Shown here: positions 10,431-51,368 of the stretch, piece by piece
Layout of the letters: every line of letters starts with the position of its first letter
Numbering within the stretch: position 1 is the stretch's first letter
Origin: a virus
Strand: one strand, 5' to 3'
IMG/VR virus record: IMGVR_UViG_3300045988_105030
DNA length: 64,000 nt
Program-made: the position numbers and the translations under genes
Notes under the pieces: generated by a model
What the model saw: only the letters and a program-made list of their open reading frames with translations
Databases searched by the model: none
What the model was told of the DNA's origin: nothing

Positions 10431-10517
10431 GCAGGATGAAGCCGCAAGGCGCGGCGGCGGTTTGCTAAACCGTTTCGCTCTGGCAAGGGTGGGGTTCGAG
10501 TCCTCCGTTCTGCGCCA
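10431..10517 (+). tRNA. tRNA-Ser(GCU)-like, phage-encoded, 87 nt with a long variable arm
   Basis: Acceptor GCAGGAT/GTTCTGC (2 G-U pairs). Anticodon arm GCGGT-TTGCTAA-ACCGT. T-loop TTCGAGT. G73 and an encoded CCA. The T stem is imperfect. Confidence 0.5.
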
Positions 10518-29367: not shown

Positions 29368-30393
29368 TCAAGACTGCTCCTGCGCCAGCTGGGCGGTGAT
29401 CTGGGCGCAGCGCTCCTGTTCCTCACGGACGAGGACGGCGCTCTTGCGGCCTGTGCGGCTGAGAAGCCGGCCGGAATAAATCTGGGTGGTGTTGGGGTTG
29501 GCGTGGCCCAGCTTGGCTTGCAGCTCCTCCATGGGCATACCGGAATTTAAGTCCAGCCGCGCCCCTACATGGCGCAGGTCGTGGGTACGGACGTTATCCA
29601 CGCCGGTGACGGCCTTTACATGGCGCGCTACAAGGCTGCTGAGCCACTGGGGAGAGCCGCGCCGCCACACGCCGTCTTGCTGGAACACGCCAAATTCTTT
29701 GGCGCTGGTGGTGCCGAACAAGGGCGCTGTGTCGGGGACATCCCGGGGGCGAATACCGCTGGCCAGATAGATACGGACGGCGGACTGGGCAATCTCGGGG
29801 AACTCCACGCGGCGGAATTTGTTGCCCTTGCCCCGCTCTACTATCAGCTCGCCGGACTCCCAATCCAGATCGGCGGGGGAAAGACTTAAAAGCTCGGCAT
29901 TGCGAAGCTCGGTGGTGAGCAGCAGAATGATAATGGCATAGTTGCGGGGCCATCTATCACGGCGGCAGCCGCTGGGCCGGTCGCAGCGCCAGAGCCGCAT
30001 GACCTGACGGTCTGTTAAGATGGCATCGTAGGGACGCCGGTCTGACTGACTGGTCTGGGGGAAAAAGCGGCGGGAGACAGGGTTTGTGGGATACCAGCCG
30101 CCGCAGGAGGGGTCACAGGCAAAGTCAAAGAACACACGGAGGCGGGTGAGATACTGCCGGACGGTGTTGGGCGTCAGGCCGCGCTCTACCAGACTATCGC
30201 GCCACGCGGCCACGGTGGTATAGGTAGGGTCTTTATAATTCTCGGCGCCGGAGATGTAGAAATTCATGAAGCTCTCAAGGGTGCTGGTGTAGGCATAGAG
30301 GGTGCGGGGGGACTGGCTGGTGGCGGCGAGGTTCTTCAAGTATGCATGTGAGGCCTCACATAACTTTCGCTCGGGTGCACTGCTTCTCGGCAT
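29368..30393 (-). CDS. int: Tyrosine recombinase / phage integrase
   Basis: 341 aa. C-terminal catalytic region HDLRHVGA ... LGHANPNTTQIYSG. Confidence 0.85.
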   Translation of the reverse strand: MPRSSAPERKLCEASHAYLKNLAATSQSPRTLYAYTSTLESFMNFYISGAENYKDPTYTTVAAWRDSLVERGLTPNTVRQYLTRLRVFFDFACDPSCGGWYPTNPVSRRFFPQTSQSDRRPYDAILTDRQVMRLWRCDRPSGCRRDRWPRNYAIIILLLTTELRNAELLSLSPADLDWESGELIVERGKGNKFRRVEFPEIAQSAVRIYLASGIRPRDVPDTAPLFGTTSAKEFGVFQQDGVWRRGSPQWLSSLVARHVKAVTGVDNVRTHDLRHVGARLDLNSGMPMEELQAKLGHANPNTTQIYSGRLLSRTGRKSAVLVREEQERCAQITAQLAQEQS

Positions 30394-32166: not shown

Positions 32167-32322
32167 TTAGGGCTTTTCCACCAGTTCCACGGTGTCGGGA
32201 ATGAGCAGACGGGCGGCGGCTTCGGATTCCGCCTCGATGAGCATGGTAAACTCCTCGCCGTCCCGCTTGCGGCGGACACGGAAGGAATATTCCTGCTTGG
32301 TGACATTGGTGACAAGGTTCAT
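32167..32322 (-). CDS. Small hypothetical protein (51 aa)
   Basis: Its ATG overlaps the desulfurase stop (ATGA). Sequence MNLVTNVTKQEYSFRVRRKRDGEEFTMLIEAESEAAARLLIPDTVELVEKP. Below the ORF-track size cutoff. Confidence 0.35.
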   Translation of the reverse strand: MNLVTNVTKQEYSFRVRRKRDGEEFTMLIEAESEAAARLLIPDTVELVEKP

Positions 32323-33374
32323 ATTTGCATCTCCTTTCCGTGCTTCAGGTGGGGGACGAAGGCGGCGATGAGCTGCGCCGCCTCGTCCGCTTCGGACAGC
32401 GTATTCTGCCAGTCGAATGAGAAACGGACGGTGGACAGGGCTTCTTCTTCGGTGAGGCCGCTGGCGATGAGGTTTTCCGAGGCGCGATTCTCGCCGCTGG
32501 AGCAGGCGGAGCCGGTGGACACCATGACGCCGTGGTCACTCAGGGTGGCGGCAAGGGACGCGCCGTAGACGCCGGGGAAGGTGAGGGACAGGATGTGGGC
32601 GGCGGTGTTTTTGCCGCCGTTTACCCGGTATTCCACGCCGCTTTCCGTCAGGCGGTGCAAAAGGCGATCCCGCAGGTCGATGAGGTGGGTAATATTTTCC
32701 TCCATGTGGGCGGTGTGCCATTCCAGCGCCGACGCCATCGCGTAGGCCAGCGGCACGGACACCGTTCCGCCGCGCATACCGCGCTCCTGTGCGCCGCCGT
32801 GGAGCAGGGGGGTAATGGGACACCCCTGACGGACGATCAGCGCGCCTATGCCCTTGGGAGCGCCGAATTTGTGGCCTCCAAAGGCCATGTAGTCCACGCC
32901 GAGGGCGTGGAAGTCGATGGGGAGGTGTGCGACGGCGGCGGTGGCGTCTACTGCGACGCGAATGGGTCTGTTTTTGCGGCAGAAAGCGTCTATGTCGCTT
33001 ATCAGTCCAGTCTCGTTGTTGACGAGGGAAAGAATGGCGGAGGGCCTGCTGCGCGGCGCGTTAGGGGATGAATAGGCGTGGATGCCCTCGCTGACGGCGT
33101 GGTGAACGGTGCCGTTGTAGATGATGCCGTCGGACTCTATGCGAAGGCATTTGACCATCCAGTTGCAGGACTCGGTGGCGCCGGAGGTGAAGTAGACCTC
33201 GCAGGGGTCGCAGTTGAGGCACCGGGCGATGGCGGCGCGGGCGTTCTCCAGCGCGGCTTTTGCCTCACGGCCGGCGGCGTGGCTGCTGGATGGGTTTGCC
33301 TCCGGCGCGGCTTGCATGGCGTTCCACGCGCAGGGAAGCACCGGCGTGGTGGCGGCATTATCAAAGTAGATCAT
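32319..33374 (-). CDS. Cysteine desulfurase (NifS/IscS-like class V aminotransferase)
   Basis: 351 aa. PLP lysine in GGHKFGAPKG. Catalytic Cys in STGSACSSG. N-terminus IYFDNAATT. Confidence 0.85.
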   Translation of the reverse strand: MIYFDNAATTPVLPCAWNAMQAAPEANPSSSHAAGREAKAALENARAAIARCLNCDPCEVYFTSGATESCNWMVKCLRIESDGIIYNGTVHHAVSEGIHAYSSPNAPRSRPSAILSLVNNETGLISDIDAFCRKNRPIRVAVDATAAVAHLPIDFHALGVDYMAFGGHKFGAPKGIGALIVRQGCPITPLLHGGAQERGMRGGTVSVPLAYAMASALEWHTAHMEENITHLIDLRDRLLHRLTESGVEYRVNGGKNTAAHILSLTFPGVYGASLAATLSDHGVMVSTGSACSSGENRASENLIASGLTEEEALSTVRFSFDWQNTLSEADEAAQLIAAFVPHLKHGKEMQI

Positions 33375-33510: not shown

Positions 33511-33789
33511 TCAGGTGTTGAGCAGATCCTTGAGGGCCTTGGACGGCTTGAACACAACTACGCGCTTGGCGGGGATCTCCACGGTTTCGCCGGTGGCGGG
33601 ATTGCGGCCCGTATGGGCGGGACGCTCCTTGGCGGCGAAGATGCCGAAGCCGGGGATATTCACGCTGTCGCCGCTGCGTTGCAGCACTTCGGTGATGGCG
33701 GTAAACACAGCGTCGGACACGGCGGCGGCGTTGGTGCGGGTCTGGCAGGACACGGTGGCCACGCGGTCAATAAATTCCTTCTTGGTCAT
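33511..33789 (-). CDS. hup: HU-family DNA-binding protein
   Basis: 92 aa. Sequence FGIFAAKERPAHTGRNPATGETVEIPAKRVVVFKPSKALKD is canonical HU/IHF. Confidence 0.9.
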   Translation of the reverse strand: MTKKEFIDRVATVSCQTRTNAAAVSDAVFTAITEVLQRSGDSVNIPGFGIFAAKERPAHTGRNPATGETVEIPAKRVVVFKPSKALKDLLNT

Positions 33790-33829: not shown

Positions 33830-33857
33830 TGGAGCGGAAGGCGGGAGTTGAACCCGC
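33830..33857 (-). pseudogene. Orphan 3' fragment of a tRNA-Gly (T arm, acceptor strand, UCCA)
   Basis: Minus strand GCGGG-TTCAACT-CCCGC-CTTCCGC-T-CCA. No D arm or anticodon arm lies upstream. Likely an att scar. Confidence 0.6.
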
Positions 33858-34518
33858 GTGTCGTGTAGGTTAGGCGGTAAACATTGAAAAAGGAACAGGA
33901 TCGAAGGAGAACTCAAAAACACAATAGGAGGTGTGTTAAGAATGCGTTTCATGCAGCAAGAAAACCCGGAAAATGATCGATATCATTTTGCCCGCGCCCA
34001 ACGACGCCCCAACGGCTCTTCCGCACATTAGGCCGGCGCGGCGCTTTCCCGCGCCAGCCAATGGTGAGAGAAATAACGCCCAAAGGCGGGAATTTTACTT
34101 TTGATTTTTTGTATCAGTATGAGTATTTTCACCGCAAATTGACGCTAGGTGAAGCCAACAGGATAACGCCTGCCGTTTCTCTGCCCACCGTCATGCGTGC
34201 CACGGAACAAGAGCACAGGAGCTTTGATGCGCGGCTGGTGCGGTGAAGTCCAACCGGGGGACATCAAGAGCAGCCCCGCTCCGTTATGGCCTATCGTCGG
34301 CCCTGTCGCTTTATGGCATATGAACCAACTCTCAAAATACATTAGAGACTGCCCCCTTTCTTTGTTTTGCCACTGTTGTAGCCGTGGCCGCTTTGAGGTG
34401 GGAGGTTCCAAATTCGCCGGGGCCTCCTAACTCGCTATCCGCTCTATCAACCGGATGACATCACGGCCAAAGTGTGAAGGTTTCATTCCAGCCACGGTAT
34501 ACGTCGGGCTGGTGGGCC

Positions 34519-34595
34519 TGGAGCAGCGTAGCGGATTTGAACCGCCACTCTCGGTTTGGAAGACCGGTGTGCTGACCGTTGAACACTAACGCTGC
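34519..34595 (-). tRNA. tRNA-Gly(UCC)
   Basis: 77 nt. Acceptor GCAGCGT/ACGCTGC. Anticodon loop CTTCCAA. T arm GGCGG-TTCAAAT-CCGCT. U73 and an encoded CCA. Confidence 0.75.
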
Positions 34596-34737
34596 ATGGG
34601 TGCCGCGCCATATCCCGCTTTGGCGGCGCGGTGGTTGGCCTTGGCCTCATCGTGTCTGTGGTTGCAGACATTCCGTCTGGCGGTGCCTTGCCGCCATAGT
34701 ACAGGCTGGACGGGAGGCCCCCAACGGGCGGCCATTT

Positions 34738-34808
34738 TGGGGCGGCGGGGTCTCGAACCCCAATTCAGCGATTCCGTCGCCAGCATTTACCTTTATGCTA
34801 CTCGCCCC
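34738..34808 (-). ncRNA. tRNA-like gene X2 with a non-canonical anticodon arm
   Basis: GGGGCGA acceptor (A7-C66 mismatch). D arm AGCA-TAAAGGTAAA-TGCT. T arm TGGGG-TTCGAGA-CCCCG. Middle arm TGGCGA-CGGAA-TCGCTG. No CCA. Confidence 0.45.
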
Positions 34809-34951
34809 AGGGTGGGTGCCGGTCTTTCCCGGCTGTCACCGCTGCGTGTCGGCTGCTTGCGGTTAGCCCCGATAGGTACACGTTTCTGCTTCCTTCTTGT
34901 GCTCTATCCCCGGAAGCCCGTTCAGCTTGTACTTCGCATGAGCACTGGATC

Positions 34952-35024
34952 TGGTGCAGACGGTTGGACTCGAACCAACGACATACCTCCTGGCGCGGTG
35001 CTCTACCGACTGAGCTACGTCTGC
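34952..35024 (-). ncRNA. tRNA-like gene X1 lacking a foldable anticodon arm
   Basis: Perfect acceptor GCAGACG/CGTCTGC. D arm GCTCAGTCGGTAGAGC. T arm GTTGG-TTCGAGT-CCAAC. Encoded ACCA. Only 19 unpaired nt (CCGCGCCAGGAGGTATGTC) lie between them. Confidence 0.5.
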
Positions 35025-35199
35025 ATTGAGGGGGGTGCTCGTCTTTCCGAGCCGCCAGATCTTTTCCGTGCCTTGCTTTTGCCAGCAGATCACAGGCGCA
35101 ATTACTGCATCAAGGCTTGAGGGGCTTACTTCAGGACTTCGCATCACCCAAACGGCTATCCCGCTAAAACGCTCGTCACTCGCGGTGTCCACGTAGAAT

Positions 35200-35275
35200 T
35201 GGAGGTATCGGTGGGGATCGGACCCACGACCTGCTCATTACGAATGAACTGCTCTGCCAGCTGAGCTACAACACC
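35200..35275 (-). tRNA. tRNA-Thr(CGU)
   Basis: 76 nt. Acceptor GGTGTTG/CGATACC (2 G-U pairs). Anticodon arm GTTCA-TTCGTAA-TGAGC. Unusual T-loop TCCGATC. Encoded CCA. Confidence 0.7.
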
Positions 35276-35480
35276 GGATCCCCACCTTGTTTACGTCCTG
35301 GTGGGCGAGCTGACGTGCGGCAGAGGGGCTTGCGCCCCTGTGACCGCGTTCCTGCGCGAACTTCACGCGGGACGCCGGAAGAATGGATGTAAGACCGGCG
35401 CAGCCTTTCTTACGGAAGGGCTTATATTACTGTGAAAGGAGGTTCCTATCCTGGAACAATGGGAGGGGGAGAATGTTCCT

Positions 35481-35509
35481 CCTCATGATGATTGTACGTC
35501 CCGTGTCAA
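35481..35509 (-). promoter_or_regulatory. Promoter-like motif copy 1, upstream of the tRNA array
   Basis: Minus strand TTGACACGGGACGTACAATCATCATGAGG. It shares TTGACACGG..ACAATCAT with copies at 35757-35785 and 45967-45995. Confidence 0.35.
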
Positions 35510-35560
35510 GAACTTTTGAAAAAGTTTTTTGAAATGTTTTCGGGAACTTTTGGCCCACTT

Positions 35561-50015: not shown

Positions 50016-50041
50016 GGGTTCGACTCCCCTCGCCTCCACCA
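50016..50041 (+). other. att core: 3' end of a tRNA-Ala- or tmRNA-type gene (fragment only)
   Basis: GGGTTCGACTCCCCT-CGCCTCC-A-CCA. The acceptor strand implies 5' GGGGGCG with a G3-U70 pair. No upstream tRNA body. Confidence 0.6.
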
Positions 50042-50216: not shown

Positions 50217-51368
50217 TCAACGTTTGTCTTCTGTCTTTGCTTGTGGTGGCGGTAGCTTTTCGGCTGTCCGATAGAATTTTGCCATCTTGTTTTCTGCTTT
50301 CAGTCTGTCCCTTTGGGCGAGGTGCAGATAAATGTCGTGTACGGTGGAACTGTCAGACCAGCCGCCCATACTCATGACCTCGATCTCCGACAGGCGCAGG
50401 TGGTAACCAAGAGATGCGAACGAATGCCGCAGACAATGCTCCGTGATATTTGGAAGACCCTGCTGCACTGCAATAGTGCGTATGTGCCGATTGATGGTGC
50501 TGTTGGCTTGCGTTACGATGTAGCCGTCTTTTGACTGCGCCTCAAGCAGTTCTCTAAGCCGGGGTATCATGATGGGGACAGTGCGTGCGGACTGCCGCGT
50601 TTTATTGCGTTGCTTGAACACCTCTTTGTTGTGTTCGTCCCGAACAACGGCGCCGGATACAAAGATGCTGCCGTTTTTCATGTCAAAACTGTCTGGAAAA
50701 CGCAATGCCCTGATTTCTGACATTCGCAAACTGTGTAGGCCGAGAAGCATTGCCATTTCGCAGGTGTCGCCCTTTGCAGCCTCGCAGAAAGCGATGATCT
50801 GCTGTGGATCAAGGAACTCCCGCTCATTTTTCTCCGGCACAGGGAACAGAACGCGGGGGACGGGAATCTCATTTACGCGCATGATGACAGTCATAAGTCC
50901 CCATGCGTTTTTTACGGACTTGTCGGAAAGACCGGAAAGTGCCGTGTTGATCTCCGCTTGCCAGTTGACTTGTGCGCTCATAGGCTTTTGCATGATATTA
51001 TGAAAGCGGTTGCGCTGGATAACGCGGTAGCCCCGGACGGTTTCCGGCGACAGCGATTCAGATCGGTCGGCGATATAGGCATCTATCGCCTTAGTCCACG
51101 TTAAGGATGGCAGTTTTTTCTGCTGCTCCACAAAACCTGCGCGGACGGCTTTTGCTTTTGCAATACAGCGGTCTTTTGTCGTTTCGGTGACAGATCGCTT
51201 TTCGGCGGCAAGATAGATACGCCAGCTGCCGGAGGGAAGCTGCTTCGGCTCCGGAACCTTGATAATACCGTCCTTTTTGCGCTCCCGCACCTGCTTCTGG
51301 CCGCACCAGGGGCAGAACGTGGCGTTGTCGGGGACTTCGCGCTTACAGGACTTGCACTTCGTTGACAT
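50217..51368 (-). CDS. int: Phage integrase (tyrosine recombinase) with an N-terminal zinc ribbon
   Basis: 383 aa. CKSCKREVPDNATFCPWCG. Catalytic region HCLRHSFASL ... MGGWSDSSTVHDIYLH. Confidence 0.85.
   Translation of the reverse strand: MSTKCKSCKREVPDNATFCPWCGQKQVRERKKDGIIKVPEPKQLPSGSWRIYLAAEKRSVTETTKDRCIAKAKAVRAGFVEQQKKLPSLTWTKAIDAYIADRSESLSPETVRGYRVIQRNRFHNIMQKPMSAQVNWQAEINTALSGLSDKSVKNAWGLMTVIMRVNEIPVPRVLFPVPEKNEREFLDPQQIIAFCEAAKGDTCEMAMLLGLHSLRMSEIRALRFPDSFDMKNGSIFVSGAVVRDEHNKEVFKQRNKTRQSARTVPIMIPRLRELLEAQSKDGYIVTQANSTINRHIRTIAVQQGLPNITEHCLRHSFASLGYHLRLSEIEVMSMGGWSDSSTVHDIYLHLAQRDRLKAENKMAKFYRTAEKLPPPQAKTEDKR

Follow-up and report, generated by a model that had tools for sequence, protein, structure and literature searches.

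Phage tRNA genes are usually viewed as supplementing codons or replacing tRNAs that host defenses have cleaved. Two RNAs that share this setting are GOLLD and ROOL, for which we know of no function. Both are long structured RNAs found beside or around phage or prophage tRNA genes (PMC12286853, PMC5737381). The locus described here is an array of tRNA genes, tRNA-like units (X1 and X2) and structured spacers on the minus strand of a 64,000-nucleotide viral sequence, IMG/VR record IMGVR_UViG_3300045988_105030; this whole stretch is referred to below as the window. The array is a phage tRNA island with associated noncoding RNAs, and its location in a phage beside tRNA genes is that of GOLLD and ROOL. 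It is nevertheless a member of neither: GOLLD and ROOL have one fixed 580–800-nt fold, whereas the array consists of interchangeable 140–330-nt modules, every one of which has a tRNA or tRNA-like unit as its boundary, and non-decoding tRNA-like units are part of its design. The modules are conserved, covary and are reshuffled among related phages, and we tentatively read the array as a tRNA-punctuated polycistronic noncoding RNA in which the tRNA-like units may act as scaffolds for processing and folding, with stable structured RNAs as the released products, an account that we favor and place just short of probable.

A second likeness is to the TMERs of gammaHV68, clustered viral tRNA-like elements that are not aminoacylated and are linked to downstream structured hairpin RNAs, and in which the tRNA-like element, processed by RNase Z, directs processing (PMC4337559). 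TMERs belong to a eukaryotic virus, have Pol III promoters inside the tRNA-like element and carry pre-miRNA hairpins as cargo, whereas the window's array has a single predicted bacterial promoter, interspersed canonical tRNAs and much longer cargo; we regard the likeness as one of analogy, not homology, and the array is not a TMER. The tRNA cluster of phage T4 holds the stable RNAs C and D, and RNase P processes the precursor of the phage P1/P7 C4 antisense RNA. These, too, are phage noncoding RNAs co-transcribed with or folded like tRNAs and matured by the host tRNA-processing machinery, but they amount to one or two small RNAs, and we know of no anticodon-arm-replaced family or cassette shuffling described for them. 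Theta ribozymes are structured RNAs that abut tRNA 3' ends in human-gut phages and are tied to tRNA end formation (PMC10879173). Only 4.5% of theta-associated tRNAs have an encoded CCA and about 90% of their predicted hosts are Bacteroidota (PMC10879173), whereas the window's array has encoded CCA and a likely host in the Oscillospiraceae; the array is not a theta-ribozyme arrangement. Finally, the phage tRNAs that evade anticodon nucleases also have anticodon loops that depart from those of the host (PMC10264068), but they still decode and have 7-nt loops, whereas X1 and X2 are without a usable loop.

Architecture of the array and its tRNA-like units

The array occupies 35490–34340 on the minus strand as a terminator-free noncoding unit of ~1.15 kb led by a predicted promoter, and we infer that it is transcribed as one unit. 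The sigma-70-like promoter (35491–35520; TTCAAA, 18 nt, TACAAT) is assigned by consensus match, and the arrangement TTCAAA … CATAAT also precedes the related array in L097 (L numbers denote related loci). The leader Ld (~215 nt, 35276–35490; minimum free energy −80.6 kcal/mol) is a series of hairpins ending in CCCACC…GGTGGG directly 5' of tRNA-Thr. It contains, at 35434–35443 (−), ACCTCCTTTC, which we take to match exactly the anti-Shine-Dalgarno stretch at the 3' terminus of 16S rRNA; the otherwise diverged leader of L097 keeps the motif GGAACCTCCTTTCA. After the leader come tRNA-Thr(CGU) (35200–35275), spacer S1 (175 nt, 35025–35199), X1 (34952–35024), spacer S2 (143 nt, 34809–34951), X2 (34738–34808), spacer S4 (142 nt, 34596–34737), tRNA-Gly(UCC) (34519–34595) and S5, which is composed of a structured post-Gly domain (its 5' 123 nt, 34396–34518) with the invariant motif GGAATGAAACCT and a 3' tail (34340–34395). 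We found no terminator inside the array or at the end of S5, whose 3' boundary at about 34340 is approximate.

A preliminary description of the sequence had placed four minus-strand modules here, of which Thr and Gly were considered near-canonical, and had seen them as copies of a duplicated unit; all four lie where it put them, and the array is indeed composed of repeated units of a spacer plus a tRNA or tRNA-like element. ARAGORN finds Thr(cgt) at 35275–35200 and Gly(tcc) at 34595–34519, and both are canonical cloverleaves with encoded CCA that score 57 (Thr) and 37.9 bits (Gly) against the Rfam tRNA model (RF00005, gathering score 29 bits). The two peculiarities pointed out earlier are real: the Thr T-loop is TCCGATC where most relatives have TTCGATC, and the C27·A43 mismatch of Gly is replaced in relatives by T27-A43 or by fully compensated anticodon stems (CCAGC/GCTGG, TCGGC/GCCGA, TCGGT/ACCGA). 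tRNA-Thr is 96–97% identical in more than 20 loci.

X1 (73 nt) has the 7-bp acceptor stem (GCAGACG/CGTCTGC), normal D arm (G18, G19), normal T arm (T54-Psi55-C56 and A58), A73 and encoded CCA of a tRNA. The anticodon arm and variable loop are replaced by 19 nt (CCGCGCCAGGAGGTATGTC) that had been said to hold no 5-bp helix, and a fold with the acceptor and T arms constrained agrees, leaving X1 without a 5-bp anticodon stem and 7-nt loop. It scores 52.2 bits in Rfam with the anticodon arm skipped by a local end (12 nt against 15 expected), and is not called by ARAGORN. A pattern of the X1 scaffold recovered 36 IMG/VR loci, and a scan anchored on S3, a ~290-nt module absent from the window, recovered 81, about 45 of them new; the family occurs in about 90 gut-phage loci. 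Its members have in common the acceptor stem (with the variants GCAGATG and GCAGGCA/TGTCTGC), normal D and T arms, A73 and an encoded CCA, which is kept in all 52 distinct elements that precede S3. In 37 distinct sequences, pairing holds for 95% of the cells in the acceptor, D and T arms, a level reached by none of 500 shuffles (slid controls, 30–49%); three T-stem pairs and the acceptor pair 7-66 change on both sides, and there is little or no variation in G18, T54-T55-C56-A58 of the T-loop and the CCA end.

The middles of the family, by contrast with this near-identical scaffold, fall into at least 12 unalignable kinds of 19–37 nt. The kind present in the window (kind A, CCGCGCC[A/G][G/A]GAGGTATGTC) recurs in about 30 loci with 2–3 variable sites, in at least five upstream and three downstream contexts, and looks like a 3-nt deletion derivative of kinds with a CCGC/GCGG stem (L020, L062b). 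Four loci (L026, L037, L043 and L062) have two X1 paralogs in one array that differ only in the middle. X1 is 97–100% identical where the flanking genes are 70–75% identical. A host-tRNA origin of X1 was rejected, as no host tRNA with the X1 scaffold was present in 185,579 species genomes, and so was an attachment-site role, as X1 is a full-length tRNA-like gene and not a 3' fragment, located inside arrays or between a regulator gene and terS, well within contigs. The idea of a primer-binding site found no complement of at least 12 nt to the X1 3' end elsewhere in the window.

X2 (71 nt) likewise retains acceptor (GGGGCGA/CCGCCCC, with an A7·C66 mismatch), D (G18, G19) and T (T54-Psi55-C56, A58) arms, and is without an encoded CCA. 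Its middle arm is as compact as had been noted: the constrained fold is a 5–6-bp stem with a 5-nt loop (GGCGA-CGGAA-TCGCT), which differs from the 5-bp stem, 7-nt loop, U33 and purine 37 of an anticodon arm. ARAGORN reports 'Ser(gga)' at 34809–34737; in this 7-nt-loop reading A31-U39 must stay unpaired, C stands at position 33 and the long variable arm of a serine tRNA is missing. The Rfam score, 28.1 bits, is just under threshold. The preliminary description had allowed that X1 and X2 might prove to be ordinary tRNAs, and ARAGORN and Rfam do not fold them as such. The exact X2 pattern had no match in viral contigs, and ten further copies came from two scans, one of viral sequences anchored on a spacer and a looser one of metagenomes, four with 97–99% identity (L094, L095, L097, L098) and six with 87–89% (L039, L041, L042, L044, L093, L096). 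In the latter group, the middle stem GGCGA/TCGCT has become GGTGA/TCACT and the T stem TGGGG/CCCCG has become TGAGG/CCTCG, both compensatory changes, and the 5-nt loop (CGCGA), the A7·C66 mismatch and the absence of CCA are retained. The aberrant arm is therefore maintained and not decaying. X2 and S4 are missing as a block from L032, otherwise the closest relative of the window. A 13-nt similarity on the minus strand between GACGGAATGTCTG and GACGGAATCGCTG, at 34665–34677 (S4 hairpin) and 34766–34778 (X2 middle arm), may be due to chance.

Relatives of the array hold further tRNA-like units, and in every family the defects are confined to the anticodon arm, with intact acceptor, D and T arms. 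X4 has a non-decoding middle with a 6-nt loop on an intact tRNA scaffold, a 69-nt unit in L036 has 6 bp and the loop ATCCT on such a scaffold, an X1 kind in L097 (kind H) has 5 bp and the loop TCCGG, and Thr-derived units have long hairpins closed by GAAC or AAA. The small middle loops are thus diverse: CGGAA or CGCGA in X2, ATCCT in L036, GTAGA in L026b, TCCGG in kind H, GAAC in X6 and AAA in unit 1 of L097. One unit, folded by hand, has a normal-looking Trp(CCA) anticodon arm and a poor D arm; ARAGORN calls neither this unit nor the GCAGGCA kind. X3, found in L014 (1179–1290, −), L012, L009 and others, is a 108–115-nt tRNA-like unit, again an intact scaffold with a non-decoding middle, that ends in ACCA and contains two additional hairpins. 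Its tmRNA match stays below threshold (31 bits against 47), and an identity with YrlA was rejected at 17 bits against a threshold of 69. Across 122 tRNA-like units the base at −1 is T in 118, and each unit is preceded by a GC-rich hairpin and CACCC.

Spacer conservation, covariation and module shuffling

The spacers are related to one another, as had been claimed, most clearly through a 28-nt repeat with 75% identity before X1 (35057–35030) and X2 (34838–34811), which forms a hairpin with the loop GAAAGA followed by CACCC. At the 3' end of S1 this is CTCG-GAAAGA-CGAG and CACCCCCCTCAAT, at that of S2 GCCGG-GAAAGA-CCGGC and CACCCACCCT, and S4 ends in the hairpin CCGCGCC…GGCGCGG and CACCCAT. GGAAAGACNNNCACCC is present twice against 0.01 expected. 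The shared 9-mer ACTTCGCAT, which the earlier claim had cited, is weak evidence by itself for a relatedness that is otherwise real. The spacers had also been called free of open reading frames (ORFs). Mechanical ORFs do cross the region, for instance 34863–35192 (−) and 34596–35120 (+), and they run through the tRNA genes; no ORF is conserved, the crossing ones being disrupted among relatives by indels of 1 nt and by the presence or absence of the 213/214-nt X2+S4 block, and a coding role for the spacers was rejected on this ground.

The RNA modules are strongly conserved. The 3' 150 nt of the leader are 89–93% identical in at least 10 loci with flanking genes 70–75% identical, S1 exists in 17 distinct full-length variants with 92–97% identity, S2 is 96–100% identical in 14 loci, and S4 is 91–93% identical in L094, L095, L097 and L098. 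The S5 3' tail, common only to the closest relatives, is 100% identical in L032 and partly kept in L094, L095 and L098. Overall, the modules are 89–100% identical at the DNA level, against 70–75% for the HU, desulfurase and integrase genes, and the upstream genes are undetectable. Several spacers also covary. The internal S4 hairpin TGTCTG/CAGACA changes to TGGCTG/CAGCCA in a compensatory manner, and S1 has one compensatory pair (C-G to U-A), found in the window's own copy. In relatives, the homolog of the post-Gly domain is the initial ~125 nt of S6, and an alignment of eight sequences has 23 predicted pairs, six of them with compensatory double changes. In S3, which has long-range helices in relatives, 13 of 75 pairs are compensatory and 98% of cells are paired.

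Modules start exactly after a CCA or discriminator and end exactly at the 5' end of the next tRNA. S1 follows Thr or X1, depending on the phage, and S2 may in other phages be followed by X2, X3, another X1 or tRNA-Gly; the modules assort almost freely, recombining at tRNA boundaries. New RNA family models may be warranted for X1, X2, S1–S6 and the post-Gly domain. In Rfam searches at gathering scores (window and 13 loci) and at E ≤ 10 (the array region and L014), only tRNA reaches threshold, and antisense 'Plastid-ycf2' matches were set aside as tRNA artifacts. The T-box leader (RF00230) has no match at E ≤ 10. A tmRNA-type tRNA-like domain was rejected, as X1 has A3-U70 and X2 G3-C70 in place of G3·U70 and no model matches. 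A simplified descriptor of the nested double pseudoknot of ribozymes like that of hepatitis delta virus (HDV) gave 0 matches in the first 12 positions of S1–S6, and there was no Rfam HDV-family match. Antisense targets of the leader and spacers within the window amounted to 13–16-nt matches, none convincing, and a CsrA sponge was rejected because GGA is not enriched (22 observed, 23.4 in shuffles). No description of the X1, X2 or S families was found in the literature searched, the coverage of which is incomplete.

Processing scaffolds, effectors and other readings

A 7-bp acceptor stem, the T arm and the elbow of the D and T loops are what RNase P, the CCA-adding enzyme and the enzymes of 3'-end maturation recognize. 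The tRNA-like units keep all of these together with the U at −1. The assorted small-loop hairpins of independent tRNA-like families fit a design in which any stable arm will do, and the variants suggest that the anticodon arm tolerates deletion, closure or exchange for a small stable hairpin. The T at −1, the stable hairpin that precedes each unit, this tolerant arm and the stronger conservation of the spacers are the reasons for which we favor a tRNA-punctuated noncoding RNA. In such a model, a polycistronic precursor of ~1.15 kb would be punctuated by Thr-CGU, Gly-UCC, X1 and X2, and RNase P would cut the 5' end of each tRNA or tRNA-like unit, leaving the upstream spacer with a 3' end shielded by its terminal GC-rich hairpin and CACCC tail. 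The products would be stable structured spacer RNAs, or chimeras of a tRNA-like unit and a spacer, with the spacers as conserved cargo. Because their decoding anticodon loop is lost, X1 and X2 would serve as cleavage and folding signals without entering translation. The tRNA and tRNA-like units may also offer short identical sequences for recombination of modules between phages.

Several points weigh against this account. Every processing step in it is inferred, and it assigns no role to the released spacer RNAs. The near invariance of the structureless 19-nt kind-A middle is left unexplained, as are the arrays in which two X1 paralogs have different middles and are otherwise alike, and the encoded CCA of every element before S3. 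In addition, the high identity of the modules could in part reflect recent horizontal spread and not purifying selection, and the variation in S2 is too low for covariation testing.

Because kind-A invariance, middle-only paralogs and the universal CCA are not explained by processing, a second reading stays alive, unlikely as we consider it, in which the tRNA-like units are effectors. Their constant chassis would carry a variable arm with which to bind, trap or mislead a tRNA-handling host factor (anticodon or defense nucleases, modification enzymes or synthetases), with different middles aimed at different factors, and the canonical tRNAs of the array would replenish cleaved host tRNAs. Phage tRNAs have been reported to counter tRNA-cleaving defenses, anticodon-loop changes included (PMC10264068, PMC11464382, PMC11555353). 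The many unalignable middles on one scaffold, a kind-A middle conserved like the scaffold though it has no helix, and the paralogs within single arrays would suit such a role, and the closed 5-nt loops would not present the normal 7-nt anticodon-loop substrate. On the other hand, the loops do not mimic anticodon loops (they measure 3–12 nt and often lack U33), the long, conserved and covarying spacers, about 70% of the whole unit, are left out of the explanation, no tRNA-targeting system is known for these hosts, and no partner protein gene is linked to the units in both phage families that carry them. A wider form, with a somewhat smaller chance still, holds that a constant tRNA chassis displays a hypervariable arm that might neutralize tRNA-directed immunity or hijack a tRNA-binding machine, with the spacers as co-effectors and the cassette repertoires exchanged between phage families. 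Since both lack a usable anticodon loop, X1 and X2 are unlikely to act as replacement tRNAs, one of the roles first proposed in the preliminary description; decoys and a scaffolded noncoding RNA both stay in contention, and the data lean to scaffolding and processing.

It is also conceivable, although quite improbable, that the whole array or large parts of it form one large ornate RNA or ribonucleoprotein with embedded tRNAs, in the manner of GOLLD and ROOL. More than 1 kb of contiguous GC-rich, hairpin-dense and GNRA-loop-rich noncoding RNA beside phage tRNAs would be in keeping with this, as would the S3 of relatives, a domain of ~290 nt with long-range helices, and GOLLD and ROOL do occur near phage tRNA islands, with tRNAs sometimes lying in the GOLLD linker (PMC12286853, PMC5737381). 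This reading is disfavored because the module content is variable: X2+S4, S3, X3 and X4 are each optional and their orders differ, a poor fit to one fixed architecture. Moreover, the GOLLD and ROOL covariance models had no match in the window or 14 related loci at gathering score or at E ≤ 10, and no other large-RNA model matched even at E ≤ 10.

The least likely reading, that X1 and X2 are non-functional tRNA remnants made similar by the recent spread of recombining and perhaps selfish DNA, or are DNA-level recombination sites, could draw on mosaic modules almost identical across otherwise diverged phages, on the short direct repeat GGCACCCA that flanks the X2+S4 block, on a tyrosine integrase syntenic about 4 kb away and on an S2 too invariant to reveal selection, but is disfavored because of covariation of the RNA type, with double changes that compensate each other and point to selection on RNA helices in X2 (in two helices), in the X1 family (at four pairs) and in S1, S4, S5/S6 and S3, disabling changes restricted to the anticodon arm, and an X1 that keeps its U at −1 and its CCA in two phage families with different neighbors. 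The null of decaying tRNA pseudogenes put forward in the preliminary description falls on the same conservation and compensatory changes.

Phage context and biological meaning

The modules are common to at least two human-gut phage families, and about a hundred related phage contigs share and reshuffle them. The window itself is a temperate tailed phage with portal, tape-measure, tail and integrase genes, in agreement with the earlier placement of the cluster on mobile DNA. The portal, tape-measure and tail genes lie at 4.7–27 kb, among them, far from the array, a lone tRNA-Ser(GCU) at 10431–10517 (+). They are followed by a minus-strand block with, in order, an integrase (29368–30393), a Rha-family regulator (labelled anti-repressor in PHROGs), an IscS-like cysteine desulfurase (32319–33374), HU (33511–33789), the RNA array, zinc-ribbon proteins and a DNA methyltransferase. 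The small ORFs neighboring the array have no Pfam match. The desulfurase (−) is IscS/NifS-like (Pfam Aminotran_5), has the pyridoxal-phosphate-lysine and catalytic-cysteine motifs, and keeps synteny with HU and the RNA array across at least 11 related loci; the second phage family, described below, which has a solo X1 and S3, lacks it. A functional link to a neighboring protein was rejected, as the desulfurase, HU and orf58 are syntenic in the array-bearing family only.

Between S5 and the HU gene, a 61-amino-acid ORF (34061–34246, +) runs opposite to the array; it is present only in the lineage of the window and L032 and has no Pfam match. Just upstream of the HU gene lies an orphan tRNA 3' half (33830–33858, −) with the T arm CGCGGGTTCAACTCCCGC, the acceptor 3' strand and TCCA. 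Relatives have an intact tRNA-Met at this position, and the orphan half may be the scar of a rearrangement that also introduced the 550-nt gap. A second tyrosine integrase (50217–51368, −) is followed by a helix-turn-helix regulator, a YqaJ recombinase and a DnaB helicase. It adjoins, at 50016–50041 (+), a 26-nt copy of the tmRNA 3' end (GGGTTCGACTCCCCTCGCCTCCACCA), unaccompanied by a complete tmRNA gene and probably an attachment site for integration into ssrA.

In phages of the second family (~42 kb), a single X1-like unit and S3 are flanked by a terminator-like hairpin on one side and, on the other, by the genes for the small terminase, large terminase and portal; the pair stands directly upstream of the small-terminase gene in L008 (3343–3810) and about 80 other loci. 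Matches to the region were limited to two unannotated records from human fecal viromes, and an exact-protein look-up led to gut metagenome contigs only. The X1 pattern had one match in the 185,579 species genomes, an 82-nt non-canonical kind in an Oscillospiraceae metagenome-assembled genome, which suggests the Oscillospiraceae as the host group.

The locus adds a third component to phage tRNA islands, namely conserved tRNA look-alikes with the anticodon arm deleted, closed or swapped, set between covarying spacer RNAs. Should the decoy model be true, an RNA-based strategy of counter-defense would be added, and the display of variable arms on a tRNA scaffold, if real, would be a new class of phage counter-defense or host-takeover RNAs, the natural counterpart of engineered tRNA-scaffold and tRNA-gRNA arrays. 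If the favored processing model is true, the array would be a bacterial-virus case of tRNA punctuation for making noncoding RNAs, and would provide a handle on the RNAs that these phages deliver into abundant gut Firmicutes.

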